Shown here in pieces: positions 4,869-12,525 of a stretch of DNA of 20,832 bases. Below the pieces are notes generated by a model that searched no databases, was not told the DNA's origin, and worked only from the letters and a program-made list of their open reading frames with translations. The position numbers and the translations under genes were made by a program. The DNA lies in assembly GCA_964354805.1 (NCBI GenBank), contig CAYHBD010000018.1, positions 1 through 20,832 of the forward strand, read 5' to 3'. The DNA is from an uncultured archaeon (GTDB lineage Archaea > Iainarchaeota > Iainarchaeia > Iainarchaeales > GCA-2688035). Every line of letters begins with the position of its first letter. Position 1 is the first letter of the stretch.

Positions 4869-4936
4869 TGACCCTTTTTTCTGGCAGCCATTCGCTTTTT
4901 TAACCTGTTTTTCTTTATAGTTTTTTGCGATTTCCT

Positions 4937-6535
4937 ATGTCTTCTGAGCATTTTTTCTGGGCTGAGAAAGTTGCAGAAGAAATAACCAAGCAGCGCAAGA
5001 AAGAATATGTTTGTGAGGGCATGTGGAGCCCGAGCGGTTTTTTTCATATTGGGAACGCGAGGCCAGAGGTTTTTGTTCCGCATGCTGTTTACCACGTTTT
5101 GGTTGAAAACGGCTTTAAGGCAAGGCAGAACCTGATCATTGATGACTTCGACCCGATTGACAAAATCCCTGCAGGGATTCCCGTAAAAAAAGAAGATGAA
5201 GGAAAATTCATTGGTGTTCCTTGCAAGCTTGCTCCCTCGCCATTCAAGGGTCACAAAAGCTGGGCTGACTACTTTACCTCGCAATTCTCTGGCTTAATTG
5301 AAAGCTTTGGCATTGATTTGAATGTTCTTTCTGCTTTCGATTCCTACAAAAAAGGCAAATTCAATGATTTGATTGTTTTTTCTTTGAATAACAGTGAAAA
5401 GATTGTAAGTGTTTGGAATAAAATTGCCGGAACAGAGAAGCCGCTTTCTTTTTTGCCGATTGTTGTAACTTGTGAGCAATGCGGCAAGAGCCTTTTCACT
5501 AATGCAATAGCATGGGACAGAAAGAAAGTGCAGTACGAGTGCAAGTGTGGTTTTAAGGGTGCTGTTTCCCCCTTGAATGGGAAAGCAAAGCTGCACTGGC
5601 GTGTCCATTGGGTTGCAAACTGGATTGTTAACGATGTTGCCTTTGAGTCCGGAGGAAAGGACCACTTCAGCAAAGGCGGCAGCGTTGATATGGGCAGGGC
5701 GCTGATGCAAGAGGTTTTCAACAAGCAGCCGCCTTTCCAGATAGCAACAGAGTTTGTTCAATTGCATGGTGCAAAAATCAGTGGCAGCGTTGGCAATGTA
5801 ATCACTTTGCCACAGTGGCTGGAGGTTGCTGCGCCTGAACTGCTTCGCTTCATGTTCTTCAGCTATAAGCCGAACACTGCGATTGATTTCAGTTTCAGTT
5901 CTGACAGTTTTGTTTTGCTGAATGAAAGATTCGAGAGGGCTGAAAGGATTTTTTTCGGTGCGGAAAAAGCAGAGAATGAAAAGCTGGGTGAAAAAATAAA
6001 GCAAGACTATGGGATTGCTTTGATCGGGAAGCAGGCAAAAGAAATGCCTGTTCAGTTGCCTTTCTCTTTTGCTGTATTTCTTGCCCAGTTATTTGACCCT
6101 GTAAAGCAATTTGATGAAATTTTGCCTGTCCTGCAGGAAACAGGGCATATTGAAAGAAAAATGAGCAAAAACGAAGAAGCAATGATCAAGGAAAAATTGC
6201 AGAGGGCAAAGGTCTGGGTTGAAAAGTATGCTCCGCTCAAATTCAAAATGCAATTTTTGCAGCAGCTTGATTTCGGCATTAAAGCACAAATTTCTCCCGA
6301 AGCCAAAAAAGCATTTTCCGTTATTGCTGAAAAATTGCCTAAAATAAAAAATGCAGCGCAGATTCAGCAGGCTATTTTTGATTCGGCAAAAGAAAGCAAT
6401 GTTCAGCCAATGCAGCTGTTTAAATCCCTTTACTTGGTTTTGCTTGGGAAAGAAAGCGGCCCAAAGCTTGGCAGCCTCATAATTGCTTTTGGGAAAGAAA
6501 AGTGCATTAACAGAATAAAAGAAGCAGCTGCTTAA
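4937..6535 (+). CDS. lysS: Lysyl-tRNA synthetase, class I (archaeal type)
   Basis: SPSGFFHIGN (HIGH motif), Zn-binding Cys pairs, GKAKLHWRVHW, GGKDH, KISGSVGN (KMSKS equivalent), C-terminal GPKLG. ATG at 4937. Confidence 0.97.
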   Translation: MSSEHFFWAEKVAEEITKQRKKEYVCEGMWSPSGFFHIGNARPEVFVPHAVYHVLVENGFKARQNLIIDDFDPIDKIPAGIPVKKEDEGKFIGVPCKLAPSPFKGHKSWADYFTSQFSGLIESFGIDLNVLSAFDSYKKGKFNDLIVFSLNNSEKIVSVWNKIAGTEKPLSFLPIVVTCEQCGKSLFTNAIAWDRKKVQYECKCGFKGAVSPLNGKAKLHWRVHWVANWIVNDVAFESGGKDHFSKGGSVDMGRALMQEVFNKQPPFQIATEFVQLHGAKISGSVGNVITLPQWLEVAAPELLRFMFFSYKPNTAIDFSFSSDSFVLLNERFERAERIFFGAEKAENEKLGEKIKQDYGIALIGKQAKEMPVQLPFSFAVFLAQLFDPVKQFDEILPVLQETGHIERKMSKNEEAMIKEKLQRAKVWVEKYAPLKFKMQFLQQLDFGIKAQISPEAKKAFSVIAEKLPKIKNAAQIQQAIFDSAKESNVQPMQLFKSLYLVLLGKESGPKLGSLIIAFGKEKCINRIKEAAA

Positions 6536-6562: not shown

Positions 6563-7303
6563 TTACACTTCGCCGTATTCTTCCTCTATTTTTCGCACAA
6601 CTATGCCTTTTTCCGTTATTTCAAGCGGGTGCAGGTCTTCTGAATGTTTTGTTGCCCTCATTTTCCTGATGTGCAGTGTCCTGTTGCTTGCTGTTCCCAC
6701 ACCCATATAGTGCAGTACAATTACGCCGTCAACAACGTATTCCTCTACTCCATATTTTCCGAATTTGTTTGCCCCCTCTTGTATCTCTGAAACAAGCAGG
6801 GATGTTACACCGCTTCTCATCAGCATGTAGCTTACTTTCAGCACTGCTTTCCTTACGTCGTTTGCGTTCTCAAAGTTGAATCCCAATGCTGGAATGCTGT
6901 CAATGACAACCCTTCTTGCATCAATTCTTTTAATTACCCTCATTATTTCAAGCAGTAGCTTGTCAACATCATATCCTGTAACAGGGAGGCTGAATTCTTC
7001 ATCGCTCGGCATTCCAAGCTTTGCAATGCTCCCGTCAACAACATTTATTGCGTTTTTTTCCTCCAGTTTCTTCAAATCCCATCCAAAGCGCAGGACATCC
7101 TCCCTGATTAGCTCAGGCCTTTCGTCAAGTGTAACATAAACCCCTGGCTCGTTGTAGTCTTTTGCGCCCTTGTAAATGTATTGGATTCCAAAAATTGTTT
7201 TTCCTGTTCCGCATGCGCCGCTTACCAGCACGCTTCTCCCTGCAGGAAAGCCGCCTTCAACCAGTTCATCCAATCCGTTAATTCCTGTTTTCACTCTCTC
7301 CAT
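6563..7303 (-). CDS. Single-domain KaiC/RAD55-like RecA-superfamily ATPase
   Basis: TGINGLDELVEGGFP, Walker A GACGTGKT, Walker B RVVIDS, EEYVVDGVI, IRKMRAT. Confidence 0.92.
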   Translation of the reverse strand: MERVKTGINGLDELVEGGFPAGRSVLVSGACGTGKTIFGIQYIYKGAKDYNEPGVYVTLDERPELIREDVLRFGWDLKKLEEKNAINVVDGSIAKLGMPSDEEFSLPVTGYDVDKLLLEIMRVIKRIDARRVVIDSIPALGFNFENANDVRKAVLKVSYMLMRSGVTSLLVSEIQEGANKFGKYGVEEYVVDGVIVLHYMGVGTASNRTLHIRKMRATKHSEDLHPLEITEKGIVVRKIEEEYGEV

Positions 7304-7499: not shown

Positions 7500-9341
7500 C
7501 TACGCCCTCTCCACTCTCAGGACAGCAGGCAATTGTTCGATTTTTTTAATTATGTTTTCCAGCTGCCCTATGTTGTTTATTTTCACATTGAATACGCATG
7601 TCGCTATATTGTTAGGGCTGGCTTTTGCGTTTGTCGAGTTTATTGCAATTTTTGCGCTCTCAAAAGCCCCCAATACTGCCGGCAGCAATCCGGCGTAATC
7701 TTTTGCCTGCACTTTTATGTCCACATTGTAATCTTTTTTAGCCAAATCCCATTCAACCTGCAGCAATTTGCCCCCTCTTGCTCCCTTGATGTTTTCGCAT
7801 TCTTTTCTGTGGATCGTTGTTTTTCTTTTCGTTGTCCTGAAGCCAATGATTTCGTCTCCGGGCAGGGGATTGCAGCATTTCGCAATCCTGACAGTTTCAT
7901 CAGCTGTTGTTGTCAGCATGGCCGGCTTCTTTTTCATCCTGCCCCTTATTTTTATTCCAAGGCACTGCCTTATTTTCGCTTGCGCTTTGGGTGATTTAAC
8001 AAAATTCAGCCAGTGCCTTTTCACCTGCACTTTTTTGCTAGGCATTATTTCAACTACGTCTGTGTTCTGCAGCTCGTAGTGCAGCTGGACAATTTTTCCG
8101 TTCACTTTTGCTCTCTCGCATTTCGTTCCCAAATCACTGTGCACTGCAAAAGCGAAATCAACAGGAGTTGAGTGCTCAGGCAGGACAATCACCTGCTTTT
8201 TTGGGGTGAAAACAAAGATTTTGTTTTGGCCAAGCTGCATTTTCAGGCCAGGTGCCAAGCTGCCCTTTGTTTTCCTGTGCCATTCAACCAATTGCCTTGC
8301 CCACGCAAGCTTTTTGTCAAAGTACTTGTCTTTCTCATATTGCTTGTATTGCCAGTGCGCCGCAATTCCGCTTTCATCCTCATAATGCATTTCCATTGTC
8401 CTGATCTGCACTTCCAATGGCATCTTATTCCATTGCACAACAGTGTGAATGCTTCTATAGCCGTTTTTCTTCGGATTTGCAATATAGTCACTGAATTTGT
8501 TTGGCACAAGCTTATAGTTTGAGTGCACTGCCCCAAGCACTTCATAGCATTCTTTGATTGAATTGCAGATTATCCTTATTCCAAGCAAATCAAATATGTC
8601 GCTGAATTTCCTGTTCTGTTCCACGATTTTTTTGTATATCGCATAAAAGTATTTTGCCCTGCCCTCAATCGTTACATCCTTTTTCTCTTTCTGCATCAAT
8701 GCGTTGAATTCAGCAATTGCTTCAGCCAGCTCTGCTTCCCTTTGCCCCCTTTTCTTTGCAACCGTCGCCTTTATTTTTTGGTATATGTCAGGATGCAAAA
8801 CCTTGAAAGCAGCGTCCTCAACCATGCCTTTCAAATCATACAAGCCAAGCTTATGGCAAATCGGTGAATAAATGTTCAATGCCGCAGCTGCATATTCATT
8901 CAATTGCTCTTTGCTGAATTCAGCTGGATTCTGCAAAGCATCAAGCCTTACCGCAATTTTTACAAAAATTGCCCTAATGTCTTTTGCTGTTGCCAGCAAA
9001 ACCTGGGACAGCAAACCATTGCCAATTTTAGCAAAGTTGCGTCCCTCTATTTCCAACATTTTCGCGTGCTCTGACAAAATTAATGCAACATCTTTTCCAC
9101 AGACAGCTTCAATCTTTTCAATCGGCGCGCAGTCAAATAACACTACATCATGTAATAATGTTGCAGCAACCGTTTCCTCGTCAAACCCGAATTCGCTCAA
9201 AATAGCAGCAGCCCTGAGGCTGTGTTCCAGTTTCTGTTTTCCCCATTCAGCATCCTTTGCCGTAAGCAATCGTTCAGCCAAAGCGTACGCTTTCTCAATC
9301 AGGGAAGCGCCATTGTTTCCCTGCTGCTTTATTATGCTCAT
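7500..9341 (-). CDS. relA: Long RelA/SpoT homolog, (p)ppGpp synthetase (degenerate HD, SYNTH, TGS, ZFD, ACT)
   Basis: SYNTH motifs GRAKYFYAIYKK, DLLGIRII, DYIANPKKNGYRSIHT, EVQIRTMEMH, GIAAHWQYK. TGS VFTPK...TPVDFAFAVHSD. ZFD AKCCNPLPGDEIIG...IHRKEC. C-terminal ACT domain. Start uncertain (ATG 9341, ATG 9371 or TTG 9383). Confidence 0.95.
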   Translation of the reverse strand: MSIIKQQGNNGASLIEKAYALAERLLTAKDAEWGKQKLEHSLRAAAILSEFGFDEETVAATLLHDVVLFDCAPIEKIEAVCGKDVALILSEHAKMLEIEGRNFAKIGNGLLSQVLLATAKDIRAIFVKIAVRLDALQNPAEFSKEQLNEYAAAALNIYSPICHKLGLYDLKGMVEDAAFKVLHPDIYQKIKATVAKKRGQREAELAEAIAEFNALMQKEKKDVTIEGRAKYFYAIYKKIVEQNRKFSDIFDLLGIRIICNSIKECYEVLGAVHSNYKLVPNKFSDYIANPKKNGYRSIHTVVQWNKMPLEVQIRTMEMHYEDESGIAAHWQYKQYEKDKYFDKKLAWARQLVEWHRKTKGSLAPGLKMQLGQNKIFVFTPKKQVIVLPEHSTPVDFAFAVHSDLGTKCERAKVNGKIVQLHYELQNTDVVEIMPSKKVQVKRHWLNFVKSPKAQAKIRQCLGIKIRGRMKKKPAMLTTTADETVRIAKCCNPLPGDEIIGFRTTKRKTTIHRKECENIKGARGGKLLQVEWDLAKKDYNVDIKVQAKDYAGLLPAVLGAFESAKIAINSTNAKASPNNIATCVFNVKINNIGQLENIIKKIEQLPAVLRVERA

Positions 9342-9439
9342 CAATCCAACAGTAGAGCCTTTCGGTCGCATGCCTATTCCCAAAAAAATATTGTTGTGAA
9401 AAAATATTTAAATACCTATTTTTCCATTTTTCAGGCAGC

Positions 9440-9520
9440 TGTAATCATCAATTTTTTTTAAACATGGCTCGCCTGTTTATTTTTTCTTGCCCTGTGTGTA
9501 ATCATCAACTTTTTTAAACA
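9440..9520 (+). promoter_or_regulatory. Tandemly duplicated promoter-like element upstream of tpiA
   Basis: TGTAATCATCAATTTTTTTTAAACA (9440-9464) and TGTAATCATCAACTTTTTTAAACA (9497-9520). Each ends in a TTTAAA TATA-like box; the second lies about 25 nt before the tpiA ATG. Confidence 0.6.
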
Positions 9521-9540
9521 CTACCCATTTCCTTTCTACT

Positions 9541-10224
9541 ATGCAATTGAAAAAACCAATCCTTTTCATAAACTTCAAAACATACAGTGAAGCAACAGCA
9601 GGCAATGCCATTGCTTTGGCGAAAAAAGCTGAAAAAGCGGCAAAAACCACAAAAGGTTCGGTTGCGCTTGTTGTCCAGGCACTTGACCTGCGCATGATTG
9701 CTGAAAGCGTTAAGCTGCCTGTTTTTGCGCAGCACATCGATCCAATTGACCCAGGAAGCCACACAGGGCATATCCTAGCAAGCGCAGTAAAGGCAGCAGG
9801 CGCTGTTGGCACTGTTTTAAACCACGCCGAGAACAAAAGGGACAATGTTTTTTTGAGCAAGGCAATTGAGAAAGCAAAGGCAGCAGGCCTGGTTGTAATG
9901 GCTTGCGCTGAAACAACAGAAAGGGCACAGCAGATCGCCGCTTTTCCAGTGCTACCTGATTTGATTGCTGTTGAGCCCCCGGAGCTGATTGGTGGTGACA
10001 TAAGCGTCAGCACTGCTAGGCCAGAGCTGATTACAGAGAGCGTTGCAGCAATCAAGGAAATCGCCCCCGAGATTGATGTTATTACAGGCGCAGGAATCAA
10101 AACAGGCGCTGATGTAAAAAAAGCAGTTGAATTAGGCACCTGTGGTGTTTTTGTTGCCTCAGGAATTATAAAGGCAGCCGACCACTATAAGGCAATAGCC
10201 GATCTTTTGCAGGGGTTTCGCTGA
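9541..10224 (+). CDS. tpiA: Triosephosphate isomerase, archaeal type
   Basis: INFKTY, AQHID, GSHTG, LNHAE, AVEPPELIG, GAGIKT, GVFVASG; 227 aa, typical of the short archaeal form. Confidence 0.97.
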   Translation: MQLKKPILFINFKTYSEATAGNAIALAKKAEKAAKTTKGSVALVVQALDLRMIAESVKLPVFAQHIDPIDPGSHTGHILASAVKAAGAVGTVLNHAENKRDNVFLSKAIEKAKAAGLVVMACAETTERAQQIAAFPVLPDLIAVEPPELIGGDISVSTARPELITESVAAIKEIAPEIDVITGAGIKTGADVKKAVELGTCGVFVASGIIKAADHYKAIADLLQGFR

Positions 10225-10565
10225 TGCCAGAAGAAATGCAGAGAAACATCCAGGTTGTTGACGCGCCAGACCTCGATTCTTTTGATTTAAGCAAAATAAA
10301 CAACGCGTTAGCTACCGCTTATGATAAACTGCAGAGAATAGCAAACAATGACATTTCAATGGTTCTGCATTTCAAGGAATACAATACCGCCGGGAGAAGG
10401 GAAAAATTCAGCATTCACCTGCGCTTGGCCTTTCCCGGAAACAACGTGGTCGCAAGCGCGGTAAGCTGGAAAGCGCCGGATGCAGTCCAGCAGGCGCTGC
10501 GCATTCTTGAAAGGGAAACAGTTGAATCAATAAAGAGAAAAGAAGAGAGAGGCAAAAGGCCCTGA
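10224..10565 (+). CDS. Ribosome hibernation promoting factor (HPF/RaiA/S30AE)-like protein
   Basis: 113 aa with a beta-alpha-beta-beta-beta-alpha pattern. C-terminal KFSIHLRLAFPGNNVVASAVSWKAPDAVQQALRILERE resembles the HPF fold. Translationally coupled to tpiA by a TGATG overlap. Confidence 0.65.
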   Translation: MPEEMQRNIQVVDAPDLDSFDLSKINNALATAYDKLQRIANNDISMVLHFKEYNTAGRREKFSIHLRLAFPGNNVVASAVSWKAPDAVQQALRILERETVESIKRKEERGKRP

Positions 10566-10566
10566 T

Positions 10567-10908
10567 TCAGCGTTTTTTCTTTTTCTTCGCTTTTGCAGGT
10601 TTTTTCTTTCCCTTGCCTGCTTTCTTCGCTTTTTTTGCAGGCTTCTTTTTTCCCTTCTTTGCCCTAGTTGCCTTTTTTCCAGCCTTCTTTTTTCCGCCTT
10701 TTTTCTTTTTCATTATCTTCTTCTTTACAGTCTTTTTCTTCGCCCCTGCTTTCGCCTTCTTCTTTCCCCGCAAAGAATCCCTTGTCTCCCTTGTCATAGT
10801 TGAAACAAACAAGTCGCTATCCGGGCCTTTTTCATCCCTCAATTCGCGACGCATTTCCGCAATTATTTCCGCAACACTTCTCTTCTGGTCAGTCATTTTA
10901 AAAGCCAT
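10567..10908 (-). CDS. Small protein with a long Lys/Ala/Gly-rich tail (histone H1-like, possibly nucleic-acid binding)
   Basis: N-terminal ~48-aa mixed-charge region, then a low-complexity tail (KKKAKAGAKKK...KKPAKKAKK...). Confidence 0.75.
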   Translation of the reverse strand: MAFKMTDQKRSVAEIIAEMRRELRDEKGPDSDLFVSTMTRETRDSLRGKKKAKAGAKKKTVKKKIMKKKKGGKKKAGKKATRAKKGKKKPAKKAKKAGKGKKKPAKAKKKKKR

Positions 10909-12064: not shown

Positions 12065-12124
12065 GTTCTCTTAATAGAAAATGCGCTTCTTTCTTTTAAC
12101 CCTTCTCAAATAGTTATGTATAAG

Positions 12125-12401
12125 TGTGGGCGTGCTTTGAAATGGGTTTAATCTGTTGAAAAAAGTTTTTTCACTGCTGCCGCTTGCTTTCGCTTCCCTC
12201 GAAGCATTCTTCGTTGTTGTTACCGTTGCTCTCTTCCGAGCCTGGCGGGTTTCGCAGCAGCAAAAAACCTAAGAGGACAAAAGCTCATCGCATGCAGCAA
12301 TGGCTTTTTTCATCAGCGTTAAACCGCTCCCAAAGCTTCGGTTCCAGCGTGAAGCGGATTTCTGGCAACAGAGGACCGCTGGCCCTCCAACCTAGCCCAC
12401 A
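12125..12401 (-). ncRNA. ffs: Archaeal SRP RNA (7S RNA)
   Basis: On the minus strand, 5' TGTGGGC pairs with 3' GCCCACA (helix 1). Alu-domain-like GGCTAGGTTGGAGGGCCAGCGGTCCTCTGT...AAATCCGCT. Helix 8 signature CGCCAGGCTCGGAAGAGAGCAACGG. TATA-like TTTAAAAA at 12430-12423. Confidence 0.9.
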
Positions 12402-12525
12402 AATAAACTGTCTTTAAAGCATTTTTTAAAGGTTTTTAATTGGGCGCATTTTCTTGTTAATTGCTGTTTTGGAATTTAAAGCATTTTTAAAAGTTTTTGT
12501 ATTATTATATATTGGGTGGTTTTGT

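Follow-up and report, generated by a model that had tools for sequence, protein, structure and literature searches.

The window analysed here, 20,832 nt in length, is the whole of contig C18 of a 1.38-Mb assembly, 88.5% complete and 0.37% contaminated, from an uncultured DPANN archaeon of the Iainarchaeota/Diapherotrites type. The genes and features that concern us are listed below with their coordinates and strands, together with the evidence used to name them; the last one, a paralogue, lies on another contig.

156-230: tRNA-Lys(CTT)
4925..6535 (+): lysS, class-I LysRS, a member of the syntenic block described below (PF01921, E 8e-89)
6563..7303 (-): KaiC-like single-domain RecA-superfamily ATPase, directly downstream of RSH1 (PF06745, E 1e-76)
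7500..9383 (-): RSH1, a RelA-like long RSH (Pfam and NCBIfam matches, residue alignments)
9384..9540: divergent intergenic region between RSH1 and tpiA, 157 bp (sequence, repeat finder)
9541..10224 (+): tpiA, triosephosphate isomerase of the archaeal type, which opens the tpiA-hpf operon (PF00121, NF003302)
10224..10565 (+): stand-alone archaeal HPF/RaiA-like protein, 113 aa (phmmer, profile, AF2, Foldseek)
10567..10908 (-): 113-aa protein, convergent with hpf, whose tail is extremely rich in lysine (translation)
G000:C32:15260-16975: RSH2, paralogue of RSH1 (residue alignment)

All the features named in the preliminary description (RSH, tpiA, the 113-aa gene, the KaiC-like ATPase, lysS and tRNA-Lys) are present in their places, and RSH1 is indeed divergent from tpiA, with 157 bp between the two genes.

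The RSH1 open reading frame encodes 627 aa when counted from the TTG at 9383; alternative ATG starts lie at 9371 and 9341. The protein consists, in order, of a pseudo-hydrolase HD domain, an active-looking synthetase, TGS, a short linker, a CCHC zinc finger/RIS (ZFD) and ACT. The Pfam scores are all above the cut-offs (RelA_SpoT 135.8 bits, E 1e-39; HD_4 85.2; TGS 63.2; ACT_4 62.5), and the whole protein passes NCBIfam TIGR00691, spoT_relA, scoring 501.3 bits where the cut-off is 499.2. The nearest proteins of solved structure are true Rel and RelA enzymes, with E values from 1e-107 to 1e-94. To read the residues, RSH1 was aligned with mycobacterial Rel and E. coli RelA, and the catalytic columns were tabulated over 28 RSH1 orthologues in RelSeq numbering. 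The synthetase columns R241, K243, D264, R269, E323, Q325 and R327 are invariant in all 28, and the acceptor motif DYIAxPKxNxYxSxH is invariant in the window protein and its orthologues. These alignments support the view that RSH1 is a genuine long RSH with a synthetase predicted to be intact.

The preliminary description had called this protein a bacterial-type RelA/SpoT. The long RSH and its synthetase stand, but the hydrolase does not. The columns E81, D82, D144, H147 and N148 are L, F, V, D and A in the window protein, and every one of the 28 orthologues has the canonical letter at no more than two of the five, unlike the four bacterial references and the 30 RSH2 sequences, all of which are intact; the H..HD metal ligands are retained in RSH1. 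Because the hydrolase columns are mostly non-canonical, RSH1 is filed as RelA-like and not as Rel/SpoT: by its residues it is hydrolase-dead, and it is also AH-less, since a profile search of RSH1 gave no match to the AH domain (PF19296). The linker between TGS and ZFD is 49-59 aa long across RSH1 proteins (52 aa in the window protein) versus 137-148 aa in bacterial Rel. The TGS histidine and the ZFD CCHC residues are present in 28 of 28 orthologues. In RelA, the TGS histidine reads the 3' end of uncharged tRNA and the AH domain is part of the ribosome anchor; archaeal and bacterial ribosomes are not alike. Because the AH domain is missing and the ribosome is different, a RelA-like activation of RSH1 is uncertain. 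The RxKD/ExDD specificity motif varies across the clade, being K-F-S-D in the window protein and mostly x-x-D-D in the others.

The hydrolase is found in a separate paralogue. RSH2 has the set H53, H77, D78, E81, D82, D144, H147 and N148 intact in 30 of 30 sequences, while the synthetase residue E323 is replaced by K in 29 of the 30, the TGS histidine is gone, and there is no ZFD. RSH2, with its synthetase dead by these residues, is therefore the mirror image of RSH1, and the genome would have a make-and-break pair like that of RelA and SpoT. RSH1 would most likely make (p)ppGpp, probably on a ribosome or tRNA cue, and RSH2 would most likely degrade the alarmone. The two proteins co-occur in most families. 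In the sampled single-RSH genomes of families f14 and f12, RSH1 is present with neither RSH2 nor any other HD_4 protein; either another enzyme removes the alarmone there or RSH1 has a different role. The RSH phylogeny for which the preliminary description had called places RSH1 and RSH2 each in a well-supported clade of its own (supports 99* and 100*).

Turning to the other side of the intergenic region, tpiA matches PF00121 (TIM, E 9e-32) and the archaeal-type NF003302 (258.7 bits). Its stop codon TGA (10222-10224) shares one nucleotide with the ATG of hpf (10224-10226), in agreement with the proposed translational coupling, and in nine relatives' loci the two genes overlap or are separated by no more than 11 nt. 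A tight tpiA-hpf operon is thus supported here and in many relatives, and HPF would be co-translated with tpiA. In the intergenic region, a TATA-like box of the TTTAAATA type precedes the RSH1 start by about 25-30 nt, and a 22-nt direct repeat occurs twice (9440-9461 and 9497-9518). A T-rich/AAA box closes each copy, that of the second copy lying some 25 nt before the tpiA ATG, and it is tempting to propose that these boxes and repeats serve as promoter elements. No further copy of the repeat was found anywhere in the genome, nor was it found in the relatives' intergenic regions, where a central TTTAAAT-like box does recur; no operator common across genera was found in this region.

That the 113-aa protein is HPF-like, as had been suggested, is upheld by both profile and fold searches. 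With phmmer it finds 203 relatives, which comprise stand-alone proteins of about 105 aa and proteins of about 375 aa aligned at their C-termini. The long relatives carry four CBS domains, those of 362-384 aa giving 3-4 CBS matches. A profile of 40 sequences finds 9sr9_H (392 aa) at E 1.2e-6, followed by bacterial HPFs at 8.5e-4 to 0.05. The AF2 model (pLDDT 78) has a βαβββα arrangement (E-H-E-E-E-H), and ranks 1-14 of its Foldseek matches are all HPF, protein Y, RaiA or pY, with a probability of 1.00. The PF02482 (Ribosomal_S30AE) score is 16.6 bits (E 0.013), below the gathering threshold of 23.7, in an alignment that covers positions 17-79 of the 88 in the profile, and close relatives reach 15.8-22.8 bits. 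The length and domain bounds of 9sr9_H match those of P. abyssi HibA (PMC13324472). The alignment of our protein to its C-domain contains a single gap of one residue; this suggests a common archaeal-type length and insertions, and because it is nearly gapless, the insertions are probably present in the 113-aa protein.

The 113-aa protein begins at the tpiA stop codon and has no CBS module, so it is not a HibA or AHA proper. It belongs to the published HPF/RaiA-like, or HPF-only, derivative class, whose stand-alone members are reported mostly in DPANN and thought to arise by loss of the CBS module (PMC13324472; PMC13728122). In most sampled families, tpiA lies between RSH1 and either an HPF or a CBS-HPF gene. 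The slot after tpiA is occupied by a CBS-HPF in loci L006, L009, L012, L013, L018 and L020, and by a stand-alone HPF in the window and in L004, L005, L007, L008, L011, L019 and L022. We propose that the 113-aa protein arose in place, from a 4xCBS-HPF (HibA/AHA) gene that lost its CBS module. Judging from homology, it would most likely block idle small subunits at their decoding site and mRNA channel, in the manner of the C-domain of HibA, which is essential for inhibition (PMC13324472).

What, then, is the meaning of the arrangement? We surveyed 215 genomes of the phylum, counting RSH1 and an HPF-domain gene as linked when within 4 kb of each other. The linkage in relatives, whose absence the preliminary description would have taken as refutation, is found in 75 of the 124 genomes with both genes (72 of them divergent), against about 0.7% expected by chance, and in 10 of 22 families; however, both genes are kept but unlinked in the other 12, and the pair sits in a conserved block that extends beyond it, lysS-kaiC-RSH1<>tpiA-hpf…radA-rpa. 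Within it, lysS, radA and rpa are conserved about as well as the RSH1-HPF pair. HPF is about 4 kb or less from radA in the sampled linked families with radA in range, and it is also near radA in f31, where RSH1 is 58 kb away, and in f32, which has no RSH. Because the linkage is part of a larger housekeeping block, gene order alone is no argument for a functional module, and the head-to-head order would be best explained as the retained ancestral order of that block. For the same reason, the "translation-stress" neighbourhood that had been read into lysS and tRNA-Lys is not needed: lysS, which adjoins kaiC in L004, L005, L007, L018, L019, L023, L028 and L032, simply belongs to the block and is context only. 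The homologue of the lysine-rich 113-aa protein, for which Pfam and NCBIfam searches were empty, directly follows HPF in L004-L008, a position conserved within the window's family.

On balance, we think it probable that the locus and its genome present a RelA-like synthetase, a hydrolase paralogue and a CBS-less HPF, in a mostly inherited gene order. The head-to-head arrangement is not in itself evidence for alarmone control of hibernation.

A more ambitious possibility is that RSH1 and tpiA-hpf, perhaps with kaiC, constitute a functional stringent-response and hibernation unit, in which RSH1 responds to uncharged tRNA and its alarmone raises the expression of HPF, or its loading on ribosomes, by way of the divergent promoter region that both transcription units share. 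Bacterial (p)ppGpp induces hpf and rmf (as cited in PMC13728122), and the back-to-back promoters would permit co-regulation of RSH1 and tpiA-hpf. The divergent pairing is kept in the 72 genomes, representing 10 families, despite divergence of RSH1 to 35-45% identity among them. It has also outlasted the loss of tpiA in f14, where RSH1 and HPF remain directly head-to-head with gaps of 67-340 nt (31 genomes), and an inversion in one f11 lineage (L013) that left the two genes adjacent. Such persistence is as expected if the pair itself is selected, and it counts against mere inherited order. The conserved tRNA-sensing TGS histidine and ZFD and the matching hydrolase RSH2 are in agreement with such a unit. 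Against it are the comparable conservation of the unrelated neighbours lysS, radA and rpa, and the detachment of HPF in 12 of the 22 families. HPF occurs without RSH in one family (f32, 18/18 genomes) and RSH without HPF in four (f16, f19, f25 and f27). In other DPANN lineages, three RSH loci, one of them labelled Woesearchaeota, had no HPF within 8 kb. Moreover, the intergenic region offers no cross-genus operator, its 22-nt repeat being private to this genome, and we know of no alarmone target in archaeal transcription. Accordingly, a functional unit of this kind seems to us rather unlikely, though it deserves attention.

The second alternative concerns the product. In vivo, RSH1 could make (p)ppApp or pGpp instead of (p)ppGpp, use another acceptor, or act through a non-ribosomal regulator such as the KaiC-like ATPase. 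The deletion of the AH domain, the variable RxKD/ExDD motif and the relatives that have no RSH-type hydrolase at all would be in accordance with this. The kaiC gene adjoins RSH1 in most sampled loci, with a spacer of 196 nt here versus 11-86 nt in relatives, in which the two are probably co-transcribed; among relatives, the KaiC-like ATPase has 50-90% identity versus 35-65% for RSH1. However, the guanine-acceptor motif and all the synthetase catalytic residues are invariant, the nearest solved proteins are true Rel and RelA enzymes, and most families have a dedicated, fully conserved HD hydrolase paralogue of the ppGpp type, so that we consider a different product or target improbable. Finally, the RSH and the HPF domain do go back to bacterial types (PMC8407392; PMC13324472), but the idea that the contig is contaminating bacterial DNA, or was recently inserted from a bacterium, deserves practically no credence, being refuted by the context genes (archaeal SRP RNA at 145.8 bits, class-I LysRS, RadA with an intein, an RPA-like OB protein and PcrB/GGGP synthase, on the same contig) and by the order-wide vertical distribution, with RSH1 syntenic in 64 of the phylum's 79 genera, GC content even along the window and an assembly contamination of 0.37%.

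Returning to the reading of a synthetase, a hydrolase paralogue and a CBS-less HPF in mostly inherited order, both families were already known from DPANN. RelA/SpoT has been reported in 69% of Diapherotrites (PMC8407392). According to the current archaeal hibernation literature, Archaea have no (p)ppGpp system (PMC13728122), and no detection of (p)ppGpp in an archaeon is on record (PMC8646023; PMC13728122). For the RSH-HPF pairing, we found no report in the literature. A whole order of small-genome archaea keeps two long RSHs, one synthetase-only and one hydrolase-only, under clear purifying selection; the RelA/SpoT division of labour appears to have been reached independently there, with the synthetase usually beside an HPF-type factor. 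Named genes are now at hand for asking if a stringent response exists anywhere in Archaea, and the locus also bears on whether a RelA-like sensor works on the archaeal ribosome without an AH domain. It may be that this DPANN order has rebuilt a bacterial-derived stringent response, in which an AH-less RSH1 senses uncharged tRNA, the hydrolase paralogue resets the system and the alarmone drives hibernation through tpiA-hpf, possibly with the KaiC-like regulator. We hold this scheme to be unlikely as a whole; if true, alarmone-driven hibernation would be the first alarmone-controlled shutdown of translation in Archaea, and should the coupling have no function, we would still have here a clean case of conserved gene order mimicking a module. 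An archaeal starvation response at this locus is a good testable lead, not yet a result.

As to known systems, the bifunctional bacterial Rel enzymes (RelSeq 1VJ7, mycobacterial Rel 8FR8, Clostridial Rel 41-43% identity) are the best sequence matches of RSH1 (E 1e-107) and have the same domain order. They keep E81/D82, D144, H147/N148 and R-x-K-D in all four references, whereas these are mostly non-canonical in RSH1; RSH2 keeps their hydrolase set and lacks the synthetase glutamate. In its functional residues RSH1 resembles E. coli RelA (5IQR, 5KPS), a monofunctional, ribosome-bound long RSH. Both have the order pseudo-hydrolase, synthetase, TGS, ZFD/RIS and ACT, both have lost hydrolase and kept synthetase residues, and both have the TGS histidine (equivalent to RelA H432) and the CCHC zinc finger. 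The ExDD of RelA is akin to the acidic x-D-D of most RSH1 clade members, and each protein is partnered with a separate hydrolase-bearing paralogue. Unlike RelA, RSH1 has some 90 residues fewer from TGS to ZFD, where AH is missing, retains the H..HD ligands, has an archaeal host and ribosome, and has an activity that is predicted. Because the RSH1 clade is independent, its hydrolase loss is convergent with that of proteobacterial RelA and not inherited from it.

The 113-aa protein shares its fold with bacterial short HPF/RaiA (YfiA)/protein Y (2YWQ, 4HEI, 2RQL; Foldseek probability 1.00, TM 0.66-0.75 on target), and like them is a single domain of about 100 aa with a basic C-terminal tail, but the identity is only 13-18% and the PF02482 score is below the cut-off. 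Its closest sequence relatives are HibA (PMC13324472), AHA (PMC13728122) and the HPF-only proteins, with which it shares the βαβββα domain; the DPANN distribution agrees with the two papers. HibA and AHA have a 4xCBS energy-sensing module, which the 113-aa protein lacks, and its place as second gene of a tpiA operon beside an RSH is an arrangement absent from both papers. While the HibA paper inferred CBS loss from phylogeny (PMC13324472), the synteny presented here shows the loss in place, and so documents an in-place origin of stand-alone archaeal HPFs from CBS-HPF genes.

The window covers contig C18 from end to end; the assembly to which C18 belongs has 49 contigs and a size of 1.38 Mb (88.5% complete, 0.37% contamination). 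The RSH gene, the divergent spacer, tpiA and the 113-aa ORF of the preliminary description are all found where it had placed them, among the following features.

Features of the window (positions of the whole stretch)
6563-7303, (-) strand: KaiC-like ATPase, directly downstream of RSH1 on the same strand
7500-9383, (-) strand: RSH1, long RelA/SpoT homologue, 627 aa
Between RSH1 and tpiA: divergent spacer, 157 bp
9440-9461 and 9497-9518, (+) strand: the two copies, within this spacer, of a 22-nt direct repeat (TGTAATCATCAAYTTTTTT..)
9541-10224, (+) strand: tpiA
10224-10565, (+) strand: 113-aa ORF (HPF); its start codon and the stop codon of tpiA overlap by one base (TGATG)
12124-12402, (-) strand: archaeal SRP RNA, 145.8 bits
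13066-15312, (-) strand: RadA/Rad51 recombinase with a LAGLIDADG homing-endonuclease intein, 748 aa in total

The gene content of the contig is unmistakably archaeal, and includes class-I LysRS, an RPA-like OB-fold protein and PcrB/GGGP synthase. Since, in addition, the named nearest RSH homologues belong to 'Candidatus Diapherotrites archaeon' MAGs, we assign the source organism to the DPANN archaea, of Iainarchaeota/Diapherotrites type. Bacterial contamination is ruled out by the context genes and by order-wide synteny. The radA ORFs at the syntenic site in relatives are about 320-350 aa long and so lack the intein. At 1275-1332 on the (+) strand Rfam gives a tRNA match of 38.5 bits (positions 6-65 of the model) with the anticodon loop GAA, that is, Phe; ARAGORN makes no call there, and ORF 1306-2184 overlaps the match. 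As the body is separated from its 5' acceptor strand, the tRNA may contain an intron, be split or have decayed.

The residues of RSH1 were read from two sources: an alignment with Rel of mycobacteria and RelA of E. coli, and a column table of orthologues from 27 other genomes. The synthetase residues R241, K243, D264, R269, E323, Q325 and R327 (RelSeq numbering) are kept in every RSH1, as is the acceptor motif DYIAxPKxNxYxSxH. Of the hydrolase residues, the E81-D82 diad together with D144, H147 and N148, most are non-canonical in every one of them; in the window, LLHDVV is followed by LF in place of ED, and KLADRLHN has become KIAVRLDA. The CCHC zinc finger is present in all 28 RSH1 proteins, and so is the TGS histidine that corresponds to H432 of E. 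coli RelA, a residue that stacks against the 3' end of the tRNA. From TGS to the zinc finger there are 49-59 residues, compared with 137-148 in bacterial Rel, and therefore the α-helical (AH) domain that lies there in the bacterial proteins is deleted throughout the RSH1 clade; PF19296, the model of this domain, has no match in RSH1. By its residues, then, RSH1 can be described with good foundation as a RelA-like, synthetase-only long RSH.

The identity of the 113-aa protein was less apparent. Pfam and NCBIfam give just a sub-threshold match, to PF02482 Ribosomal_S30AE (16.6 bits, cut-off 23.7), so that the identification depends on profile and fold searches. A word-indexed homologue search returned one 95%-identical protein and nothing more, and it took phmmer, run exhaustively against 1.8 billion representatives, to reach 203 relatives at E ≤ 0.001. 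The best 150 of these 203 are mostly either stand-alone proteins of ~100-120 aa or proteins of ~360-400 aa matched only C-terminally. In the long relatives three to four CBS domains precede the HPF domain, which is the architecture of the archaeal hibernation factors HibA and AHA (PMC13324472, PMC13728122, both 2026). When compared with the PDB, a 40-sequence profile (A1) matches first 9sr9_H (E 1.2e-6), a 392-aa chain, at 283-374, and then a run of bacterial HPF, protein Y and RaiA chains; the length and domain bounds of 9sr9_H are those given for P. abyssi HibA (PMC13324472). The AlphaFold model (pLDDT 78) has the order β-α-β-β-β-α, and Foldseek, run with it against the PDB, places an HPF, protein Y, RaiA or plastid pY structure in each of the first 14 ranks (probability 1.00, TM 0.66-0.75 on target). 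The label "HPF-like" of the preliminary description, which a fold other than that of HPF would have refuted, is thus borne out by the profile matches and the predicted fold, and we now consider identification as an archaeal HPF well founded. As a class the protein is not new. Stand-alone "HPF/RaiA-like" or "HPF-only" proteins, those of DPANN reported in 2026, are already in both papers: they occur in 8% of archaea, chiefly in DPANN and in Nitrososphaerales (926 proteins, 814 species), and loss of the CBS module is their proposed origin (PMC13324472, PMC13728122).

The proximity of RSH1 and HPF recurs in relatives. A profile search of 215 genomes of the phylum found the HPF domain in 149. Among the 124 genomes with both genes and comparable coordinates, 75, spread over 10 of 22 families, have them at most 4 kb apart, while chance would bring two random genes of a 1.1-Mb genome this close in ~0.7% of cases; the orientation is divergent in 72 of the 75. 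Annotation of 36 fetched loci with the window's own proteins gave the conserved block lysS - kaiC <- RSH1 <> tpiA -> hpf (or CBS-hpf) - [Lys-rich gene] ... radA - rpa - MBL - pcrB. In the window, the gene in the bracketed position (10567-10908, (-) strand) encodes 113 aa, in which a short N-terminal domain is followed by a tail extremely rich in Lys and Ala and histone-H1-like in composition; it has no family match, and its place directly after hpf is kept in the window's family (L004-L008). No HPF lies within ±8 kb of RSH in three loci of other DPANN lineages, of which one carries the label Woesearchaeota. Two Woesearchaeota-type DPANN contigs have an RSH, apparently bifunctional and HD-positive, near kae1/tsaD (L076:6953-7927 and L074:4228-5232); within 8 kb of it there is no tpiA, KaiC or HPF domain, and the neighbourhood therefore differs from that of the window.

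Does this neighbourhood form a stringent-response/ribosome-hibernation module, as the preliminary description proposed? The two identities and the linkage speak for it; on the other hand, conservation of an ancestral block accounts for most of the gene order. We read the block as mainly inherited gene order because unrelated housekeeping genes are kept alongside the pair, and because RSH1, in the families where the two genes are apart (f4, f7, f10, f12, f13, f23 and f31), usually keeps tpiA and/or kaiC while HPF has moved. Moreover, HPF stays ~1.5-3 kb from radA both in f31, where RSH1 is 58 kb away, and in f32, whose genomes have CBS-HPF (18/18) and no RSH that could be found. The phyletic patterns are not tight either: RSH occurs without HPF in f16, f19, f25 and f27, and HPF without RSH in f32. 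Two cases point against inherited order alone. In f14 tpiA is gone and RSH1 and HPF are still directly head-to-head (gaps of 67-340 nt, 31 genomes), and in one f11 lineage they are adjacent in spite of an inversion. Weighing block inheritance and loose phyletics against these two cases, we find functional coupling of RSH1 and HPF rather doubtful, and the module a plausible hypothesis that gene order suggests.

The tpiA-hpf pair is a tight unit in many genera, with overlaps of 1-8 nt or gaps of ≤ 11 nt in nine loci, and the second gene encodes a stand-alone or a CBS-fused HPF. Within the window's own family, some genera have CBS-HPF and others a stand-alone HPF in the same slot after tpiA, which shows that the CBS module was lost at this very site.

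In the spacer, a TTTAAATA box lies ~25-30 nt upstream of the RSH1 start, and the second repeat copy has a T-rich/AAA box ~25 nt before the tpiA ATG; these boxes are putative promoters. The 22-nt repeat is ruled out as a regulon operator, since the 1.38-Mb genome contains it exactly twice, each time in this spacer, and no copy was seen in the intergenic regions of relatives; it is likely a local promoter duplication. Comparison of intergenic regions across genera revealed no conserved operator beyond TATA-like TTTAAAT boxes. RSH1 is possibly in an operon with kaiC, at a spacing of 11-86 nt in most loci and 196 nt in the window. The KaiC-like ATPase is 50-90% identical among relatives, compared with 35-65% for RSH1; a complex prediction for the two scored 0.00, without controls, and is neutral on binding.

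If RSH1 makes an alarmone, what would break it down? The same genome encodes a second long RSH.

G000:C32:15260-16975 (locus L003:754-2472): RSH2 (P0274), 572 aa

All eight hydrolase residues are intact in 30 of 30 RSH2 orthologues, the catalytic synthetase E323 is K in 29 of the 30, the TGS histidine is lost and the zinc finger is absent. RSH2 is thus a predicted hydrolase-only partner of RSH1, and, the residue patterns being complementary, one genome would hold a RelA/SpoT-like division of labour, each member in its own clade. FastTree recovers both RSH1 (99) and RSH2 (100) as monophyletic; with biased bacterial sampling, they form a polytomy with bacterial Rel and the Woesearchaeota-type RSHs, in which duplication and two transfers are not separable. 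RSH homologues occur in 153 of the 215 genomes and 64 of 79 genera, and many families have two copies. The sampled genomes of f14 (G124, G125, G132, G144) and f12 (G083), loci L070-L073, have RSH1 and no RSH2, and when they were searched for a small alarmone hydrolase, the dead domain of RSH1 itself was the sole HD_4 match. In these genomes an alarmone synthetase would be present with no recognisable RSH-type hydrolase, a gap in the make-and-break picture. In the window, a NUDIX hydrolase gene (2227-2688, (+) strand) lies a few kb from RSH1. In some bacteria (p)ppGpp is broken down by NUDIX enzymes, which makes the product of this gene a candidate alternative alarmone hydrolase.

RelA/SpoT genes of DPANN were reported in 2021, in 69% of Diapherotrites, with an inferred bacterial origin (PMC8407392), and the AHA paper describes the (p)ppGpp system as absent in archaea (PMC13728122). 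Both hibernation papers are silent on ppGpp enzymes and on the genes around HPF (PMC13324472, PMC13728122). In the literature searched we found no report of a conserved RSH1-HPF neighbourhood, of an AH-less RelA-like build or of a complementary RSH1/RSH2 split. The kinds of component, DPANN RSH and stand-alone HPF, are known, and the locus is a variant arrangement of them; through it, experiments could ask directly whether a stringent response exists in any archaeon. With E. coli RelA, RSH1 has in common the dead hydrolase, the kept synthetase, the TGS histidine and the CCHC zinc finger, whereas it differs from bacterial Rel in being built without the AH domain.
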